Origin: Escherichia coli
Lineage (GTDB): Bacteria > Pseudomonadota > Gammaproteobacteria > Enterobacterales > Enterobacteriaceae
Assembly (NCBI RefSeq): GCF_003334255.1
Contig: NZ_QOWU01000245.1
Strand: one strand, 5' to 3'
DNA length: 420 nt
In this document: positions 2 through 420 of the stretch, in pieces
Layout of the letters: every line of letters begins with the position of its first letter
How positions within the stretch are numbered: position 1 is the first letter of the stretch
Made by a program: the position numbers and the translations under genes
The notes under the pieces: generated by a model
The model's database searches: none
What the model was told of the DNA's origin: nothing
What the model saw: only the letters and a program-made list of their open reading frames with translations

Positions 2-420
2 TTTGAAGGTCAGTCCGGCATTGAGGCCGGGCTGGCGGATGAATTAATCAATGCGTCGGATGCCATCAGTGTGATGGCCACGGCGCTGAACAGTAATGTC
101 AGAGGAGGCACTATGCCGCAATTAACTGCAACGGAAGCCGCCGTGCAGGAGAACCAGCGAGTGATGGGGATCCTGACATGCCAGGAAGCGAAAGGACGTG
201 AACAGCTTGCCACGATGCTGGCAGGGCAACAGGGCATGAGCGTTGAACAGGCCCGGGCGATTCTGGCCGCGGCGGCACCGCAGCAGCCGGTGGCATCCGC
301 GCAGAGTGAAGCCGATCGCATTATGGCGTGTGAAGAAGCGAACGGTCGTGAACAACTGGCGGCAACGCTGGCGGCGATGCCGGAGATGACGGTGGAAAAA
401 GCCCGCCCGATCCTGGCGGC
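2..420 (+). CDS. C: Lambda-like minor capsid protein C / prohead protease (S49 peptidase family), C-terminal portion; partial at both ends (no start or stop in window)
   Basis: Frame 2 on the + strand is open across all 139 codons in the window. The translation has the lambda C-protein C-terminal character as recalled from memory (GLADEL..DAI.VM segment, then RxMGIL.CxEAxGRE...GMxVxxARxILAA). Codon usage is enterobacterial-like (CTG Leu, GCG/GCC Ala, CAG Gln). The minus-strand ORFs overlap each other in different frames and translate to Cys/Ala/Ser-rich low-complexity peptides typical of antisense reading of a GC-rich gene. The homology assignment is from memory and was not searched. Confidence 0.8.
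103..108 (+). promoter_or_regulatory. Shine-Dalgarno ribosome-binding site (AGGAGG) for the internal ATG at 113
   Basis: Exact AGGAGG hexamer at 103-108, extendable to AGAGGAGG (101-108), ending 4 nt upstream of ATG 113. It lies within coding sequence, where it also encodes Arg-Gly-Gly. Confidence 0.6.
113..420 (+). CDS. Nu3: Nested in-frame scaffold protein (lambda Nu3-like capsid assembly/scaffolding protein), 3'-partial; same frame as the enclosing C-like ORF
   Basis: ATG at 113-115 is preceded by a near-consensus Shine-Dalgarno AGGAGG (103-108) with a 4 nt spacer, inside a continuous ORF. This mirrors the known lambda arrangement in which Nu3 is translated from an internal in-frame start in the 3' part of gene C. 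The N-terminus MPQLTATEAA.. follows a ..RGGT junction, similar in position to the lambda ..GGR-MTKE.. junction as recalled from memory. Confidence 0.6.
   Translation, partial: MPQLTATEAAVQENQRVMGILTCQEAKGREQLATMLAGQQGMSVEQARAILAAAAPQQPVASAQSEADRIMACEEANGREQLAATLAAMPEMTVEKARPILA
158..418 (+). repeat. Intragenic tandem duplication of a ~35-38 aa protein module (copy 1 about nt 158-271, copy 2 about nt 317-418), diverged at nucleotide level
   Basis: Copy 1 RVMGILTCQEAKGREQLATMLAGQQGMSVEQARAILAA aligns with copy 2 RIMA---CEEANGREQLAATLAAMPEMTVEKARPILAA. Shared pattern is R[VI]M..C[QE]EA.GREQLA..LA....M[ST]VE.AR.ILAA with a 3-codon indel. The offset is about 150-159 nt. The copies are separated by an Ala/Gln/Pro-rich linker (AAPQQPVASAQSEAD). 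Confidence 0.6.

Follow-up and report, generated by a model that had tools for sequence, protein, structure and literature searches.

P22 gp8, phi29 gp7 and P2 gpO are transient, largely helical or flexible internal scaffolds, in which a small C-terminal helical unit is presumed to touch the shell. In P2, the scaffold is fused to a protease (PMC8508860). In phage lambda, gpC carries an S49 domain and its gene, located between the portal and decoration/capsid genes, contains a nested in-frame scaffold gene, Nu3; the overlap of C and Nu3 is attributed to Shaw and Murialdo (1980) as cited in PMC8508860. According to its title, the study of Medina et al. (2011), to which PMC9295703 and PMC11922011 both refer, describes lambda gpNu3 as intrinsically disordered. 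During lambda head maturation both scaffold and protease are degraded (PMC3224144, table 2; PMC12617516); gpC autoproteolyses, and intact gpC is not seen in mature virions (PMC12617516). Genes 5 and 6 of phage 21 are the counterparts of lambda C and Nu3. Gene 5 is labelled 'head-tail preconnector gp5' in M81255.1 (1993) and 'capsid protease/scaffolding protein' in OL657228.1 (2022 complete genome), and is lambda C-like. The 1993 record also annotates a 'Tri1 box', a 'Tri box' and a 'Tri3 box' in gene 6, with the remark 'function unknown; putative', and the spacers between these repeats carry no annotation.

In this study, we analysed a 420-nucleotide stretch of Escherichia coli DNA (the window), in which a sequence-only reading had singled out the segment AAAAPQQPVASAQSEA (positions 266–313, plus strand) as a compositionally biased and probably flexible linker between two copies of a module. 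The segment occupies codons 89–104 of frame 2 and corresponds to residues 353–368 of a 501-residue protease and to residues 52–67 of a 200-residue scaffold protein, here called gp6 after its phage 21 counterpart. It contains what we call spacer 1. The identity of the gene, the limits of the modules and spacers, the variability of the spacers among homologues and the possible roles of spacer 1 are considered in turn.

A prophage head gene of the phage 21 type

Frame 2 of the plus strand runs through all 420 bases of the window without a stop, the remaining frames being interrupted by stops, and from position 2 to position 420 it encodes part of an S49 prohead protease/scaffold gene of the phage 21 gene 5 type, the lambda C counterpart. 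Residues 1–139 of this translation are residues 265–403 of the 501-residue protein. The window is 100% identical to WP_001253936.1, an 'S49 family peptidase' of many E. coli prophages, and was matched in 1867 of 5426 complete genomes. Phage 21 and a dozen lambdoid phages related to it match the window in their head-gene region with 99.0–99.3% nucleotide identity (99% for phage 21 genes 5 and 6), and in both M81255.1 and OL657228.1 the window falls within gene 5. The phage 21 genes have the same nested start and the same three repeats as the gene of the window and differ from it by a few substitutions, such as ASTQ in place of the ASAQ found in the spacer of the window.

The genes of a prophage with an exact match are arranged in the order head-tail joining, portal, S49 peptidase, head decoration, major capsid and FI, and the succession of portal, protease/scaffold and decoration/capsid genes is common to this prophage, phage 21 and lambda. 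Within the 501-residue protein, Pfam Peptidase_S49 (PF01343) spans residues 146–293 (E = 2.6e-34) and is the only significant Pfam domain, whereas PHROG 53 (head maturation protease) matches the protein from end to end (E = 5e-229). A match to TIGR00706 (SppA_dom; E = 3.6e-31) lies under the curated cutoff of that family, and the C-terminal 200 residues are covered by neither Pfam nor NCBIfam families. Judged by these sequence comparisons, the gene is a lambda C/Nu3-type S49 prohead protease with a nested scaffold gene.

The nested gene is phage 21 gene 6, the counterpart of lambda Nu3, which starts in frame inside the protease reading frame and would yield a separate 200-residue product matching the C-terminal third of the protease. 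Its start is preceded in the window by a strong Shine–Dalgarno sequence, GGAGG, at 104–108, with the in-frame ATG at 113–115 (104–115 in all, plus strand), and the ribosome-binding site and coding sequence are annotated in both M81255.1 and OL657228.1. From the precedent of lambda C/Nu3 we infer that translation starts at this ATG. All sequence 3′ of the nested start, spacer 1 included, would accordingly be present in two protein forms, the protease and the scaffold.

Modules, spacers and their limits

The scaffold part of the 501-residue protein, which follows the S49 domain, comprises three helical modules of approximately 40 residues, in which the Nu3-type pattern …R(I/V)MGIL.C.EA.GRE…G M(S/T)V..A..ILAAA is found. 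A hidden Markov model of 42 positions, built from the three copies and the lambda copy and then iterated on the collected homologues, matched residues 314–355 (E = 1e-25), 367–405 (E = 2e-19) and 415–451 (E = 1e-16); in lambda C it matched a single module at residues 357–398. The flagged segment has the sequence originally given for it and lies between the first two of these matches, so that its placement between module copies was correct; the count of two copies was not, as the full protein has three. Module 1, ENQRVMGILTCQEAKGREQLATMLAGQQGMSVEQARAILAAA, comprises gp6 residues 13–54 (149–274, plus strand) and overlaps the Tri1 box, and module 2, EADRIMACEEANGREQLAATLAAMPEMTVEKARPILAAA, comprises gp6 residues 66–104 (308–420, plus strand) and overlaps the second Tri box. 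The window thus holds module 1 and most of module 2, which is truncated at residue 103 by the window end. In window coordinates the three boxes lie at about 180–283, 320–430 and 461–574, and positions 266–313 correspond to the end of Tri1 and nearly the whole gap between Tri1 and Tri2. The repeats have therefore been on record since 1993 as the Tri boxes of phage 21, from which the spacer follows as an ordinary feature.

Not all of the flagged interval serves as linker. Module 1 closes its last helix with the conserved residues AAA (266–274), and module 2 opens with the conserved S-E-A-D-R, of which SEA (305–313) makes up the first helical turn. What remains of the original interval is the variable coil core of spacer 1, APQQPVASAQS (gp6 55–65; 275–307, plus strand), delimited by entropy, by gaps and by the coil predicted with AlphaFold2; the two edges belong to the modules.

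Predicted structures, in which AlphaFold2 pLDDT and DSSP served as a proxy for disorder, place the same boundary. For gp6 as a single sequence, helices were predicted at 44–54 and 66–87 with coil at 55–65. With an alignment of 19 sequences the helices were at 44–53 and 66–71 and DSSP assigned coil to residues 54–65; the pLDDT fell below 50 at residues 58–63 (QPVASA), one of only three such stretches. In the latter prediction each module has three main helices and a short turn with a pLDDT of approximately 75–82, those of module 1 being at residues 6–21, 30–37 and 44–53 (pLDDT about 80), and the modules are accordingly predicted to be three-helix bundles. The overall confidence is modest (mean pLDDT 68.5, pTM 0.28), and the module fold and the geometry between modules are accordingly tentative. 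Comparison with solved scaffold structures gave neither a sequence match nor a significant fold match to the modules, and the likeness to staphylococcal protein A domains and the GA module is one of generic fold, with weak scores and 2–17% identity, which implies no evolutionary or functional link. Many phage S49 prohead proteases carry the module at their C-terminal end, yet neither Pfam nor NCBIfam has a model for it and no structure of it has been solved.

Lambda gpC/gpNu3 resembles the present protein in that its helical module runs on into a segment of the form AAAPQ...SAQ...DR(I/L)M. In a BLASTP comparison, gp6 and lambda Nu3 are 54% identical over 69 residues (E = 1e-16); gp6 residues 3–71 are colinear with Nu3 residues 111–176, the alignment crossing the spacer and reaching the first helix of module 2 (AAAAPQQPVASAQSEADRIM versus AAAPQSAQARSDTALDRLM), and spacer 1 is therefore homologous to the segment after the single lambda module. 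Lambda differs in that, with one module only, it has no inter-module spacer, and the equivalent segment leads into the C-terminal tail; the N-terminal region of Nu3 is also unlike that of gp6. In lambda Nu3, residues 158–176 consist of a spacer-like stretch and a short helix, ALDRLM, after the single module, and a spacer-like stretch with a short helix, ALFEHFM, likewise follows module 3 at residues 452–475 of the 501-residue protein. To judge from their sequences, both helices resemble the module start ADRIM and may be the vestige of a partial repeat shared across the family. The scaffolds of P22, phi29 and P2 are alike in outline, the binding of capsid by phage-21-type modules being putative.

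Module copy number differs among E. coli and Salmonella prophage versions of the gene. Of 33 collected proteins of at least 380 residues, most of them cluster representatives, 29 carry a single module and three carry three modules, two of the latter being the window protein and the added phage 21 gp5; the remaining protein (P0096, 382 residues) gave one complete and one partial module match. Two-module forms (P0022, P0019, P0008/P0009 and P0013) are in-register, in-frame deletions, in which module 1 is joined to the end of module 2 or spacer 1 to spacer 2, and a four-module form is represented by P0025. This pattern in the sequences is suggestive of unequal recombination among the repeats, in some cases with the junction inside a spacer. 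The triplication itself is old, since the three repeats have only DNA matches of about 15 nt in common, and a recent duplication, with the spacer as a fresh duplication junction, is ruled out by the same short matches. Two further homologues are of unusual build. In P0043 (270 residues, from a Logan assembly), approximately 55 N-terminal residues resemble a DNA methyltransferase fragment (…DLIVCDPPYG…), and directly after them come the last portion of the protease and a scaffold with all three modules; the protein is either a true prophage fusion or insertion or a chimera of assembly or gene calling. P0079 (323 residues, 'putative phage capsid assembly protein') is a four-module version with apparent frameshifted stretches between recognisable modules, and is likely to be a decaying prophage copy.

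Composition and variability of spacer 1

The segment AAAAPQQPVASAQSEA contains seven Ala (44%), three Gln, two Pro and two Ser, and its entropy, 2.225 bits, is the lowest among all 486 16-mers in the protein. To this extent the compositional bias ascribed to it was borne out. The bias does not go beyond chance, given that a 16-mer of equal simplicity turned up in 702 of 2000 shuffles (35%) when the whole protein was permuted and in 917 of 2000 (46%) when only the Ala-rich gp6 part was.

The alignment of homologues that had been proposed as a check for indels was carried out with 19 non-redundant three-module sequences (less than 95% identity). The mean column entropy was 0.54 bits in module 1, 0.85 bits in module 2 and 0.99 bits in module 3, all three without insert columns, versus 1.51 bits with seven insert columns in the core of spacer 1 (gp6 55–65) and 1.47 bits with three insert columns in spacer 2. 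The whole of 266–313 averaged 1.33 bits and had the seven insert columns inside it. Gaps at residues 59–61 of spacer 1 were present in 42–47% of the homologues. All indels of the repeat region fell in spacers or at spacer edges, with seven distinct gap patterns in spacer 1 and six in spacer 2, plus a single-residue gap at residue 67, at the edge of module 2.

Distances between conserved anchors give the same picture. Within the modules the number of intervening residues is constant in all 19 homologues (29 for I20..I50 in module 1, 30 for I70..L101 in module 2 and 30 for I117..L148 in module 3), in contrast to 16–25 residues across spacer 1 (I50..I70) and 12–18 across spacer 2 (L101..I117). 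The length variation between related phages anticipated by the sequence-only reading is thus present. For 56 unique inter-module spacers, with the conserved Leu of ...ILAAA and the conserved Ile of the following module as end points, lengths lie between 12 and 27 residues and mostly at 14–18, apart from one case of 35 residues that is a recombinant. They nearly always start with AA(A/S)P and end with S-x-x-D/E-x, with a variable middle of A/S/T/P/Q/G. Single-codon indels in spacer 1 already separate close relatives: in P0003, which represents 59 member sequences, one Gln of the CAG-CAG pair is missing, and in P0006 and P0020 spacer 1 is shorter by one residue each. With this entropy, these indels and the low-pLDDT coil, the segment is far from a conserved, structured element of constant length.

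Tether, cleavage site and other readings

Of the two inter-module spacers in the Nu3-like C-terminal scaffold part, spacer 1 comes first, and it most likely acts as a passive flexible tether between independently folding helical modules. The flexible linker proposed at the outset agrees with the predicted coil at residues 54–65, the pLDDT below 50 at 58–63, and the high entropy and indels set against constant modules; its flexibility in solution and its tether function are what we infer from these features. Module 1 closes with a conserved Ala-rich helix end (ILAAA), after which a proline breaks the helix; about 8–17 residues of poorly conserved coil rich in A/S/T/P/Q/G follow, and a conserved Ser-x-x-Asp/Glu helix N-cap then starts the next module. 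On this model, the ends of the spacer would be conserved because they terminate and start helices, and in its middle residues could be exchanged, added or lost freely, apparently as long as the length stays in the preferred range of 14–18. With such a tether, each module could move and dock on its prohead partners (capsid protein, portal or other scaffold subunits) independently of the others; being the most exposed stretch of the chain, the tether would also be a plausible point of attack while the scaffold is degraded by protease.

This last point leads to a more specific proposal, in which the S49 protease cuts the Ala-rich spacers at defined maturation sites and so dismantles the scaffold into single modules that exit the prohead. 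It is compatible with the tether role and adds a specific function to it. The loss of scaffold and protease in lambda head maturation, noted above, is in its favour, as is the prediction of the spacer as the most exposed and least structured stretch; moreover, the annotated cleavage site of the lambda portal has Ala at P1 (...SLREYA/GYHGGG), and several Ala-X bonds are present in the spacer. Beyond this P1 Ala, however, that one annotated gpC-dependent cut, at the portal N-terminus, is unlike the spacer, in lambda as well as in this prophage, and the middle of the spacer is poorly conserved (1.5 bits), whereas a specific recognition motif should be conserved. A literature search found no mapped sites in Nu3, gpC or gp6; PMC12991175, considered as a source for such sites, deals with T4 gp21 and not with S49 proteases. 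We regard a specific cleavage site as rather unlikely, if a serious candidate. The spacer could alternatively be a structured, sequence-specific motif for interaction with, for example, the portal, the capsid protein or a chaperonin, as might be read from the AA(A/S)P start and S-x-x-D/E end of nearly all spacers, the 'AAAPQ..SAQ' common to the spacer and lambda Nu3, and the concentration of spacer lengths at 14–18 residues. The conserved ends are nevertheless explained by a helix C-terminus with its proline breaker and by the N-cap that opens the following helix. Both sequence and length are free to vary in the middle, and the segment is predicted as coil of the lowest confidence; on these grounds such a motif is highly improbable. 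The restriction of length (mostly 14–18 residues, with conserved ends) could still reflect a functional need for a certain length or motif rather than a purely passive tether.

There is scarcely any likelihood that the segment is a signal outside the protein, either a GC-rich DNA or RNA element or one read in another frame or strand. Minus-strand reading frames of 61–103 residues are present, but frame 2 has strong homology support, and the minus-strand and other-frame reading frames were dismissed as unsupported by-products of GC-rich coding DNA. The pattern TTGYN6TTGY, annotated as 'CII binding site' in OL657228.1, has two exact matches on the minus strand near the segment, at 118–131 and 352–365, against 0.11 expected (two or more matches in three of 200 shuffles); neither of them, however, lies within 266–313. 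Both overlie Q-L-(T/A)-A codons and, as far as the sequence can tell, may simply reflect a repeated protein motif. We know of no CII-dependent promoter in head genes. A promoter scan of the window gave no promoter-like site, a terminator scan gave one terminator-like site of chance level (minus strand, 419–403), inverted repeats were weak ones only, and an Rfam search with a permissive threshold yielded nothing but one chance match, sub-threshold and outside 266–313.

The passive flexible tether remains the reading that we prefer. In a bolder version, which we hold to be unlikely and put forward as speculation, the spacers would be functional elements of a multivalent scaffold, their length setting the reach between three capsid- or portal-binding modules and their Ala-rich coils being the preferred cut sites of the S49 protease. 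If this were true, maturation would free single modules of approximately 40 residues, small enough to exit the shell, and module copy number (one in lambda, three in phage 21, two and four in variants) would tune the avidity of the scaffold. The spacer alone matters little, and the function of the repeated module is the more interesting question. A common E. coli prophage head gene would, by the present analysis, encode a scaffold of three small helical modules on flexible strings, and the precise boundaries of its modules and spacers should be useful for the engineering or structural study of lambda- and phage-21-type scaffolds.
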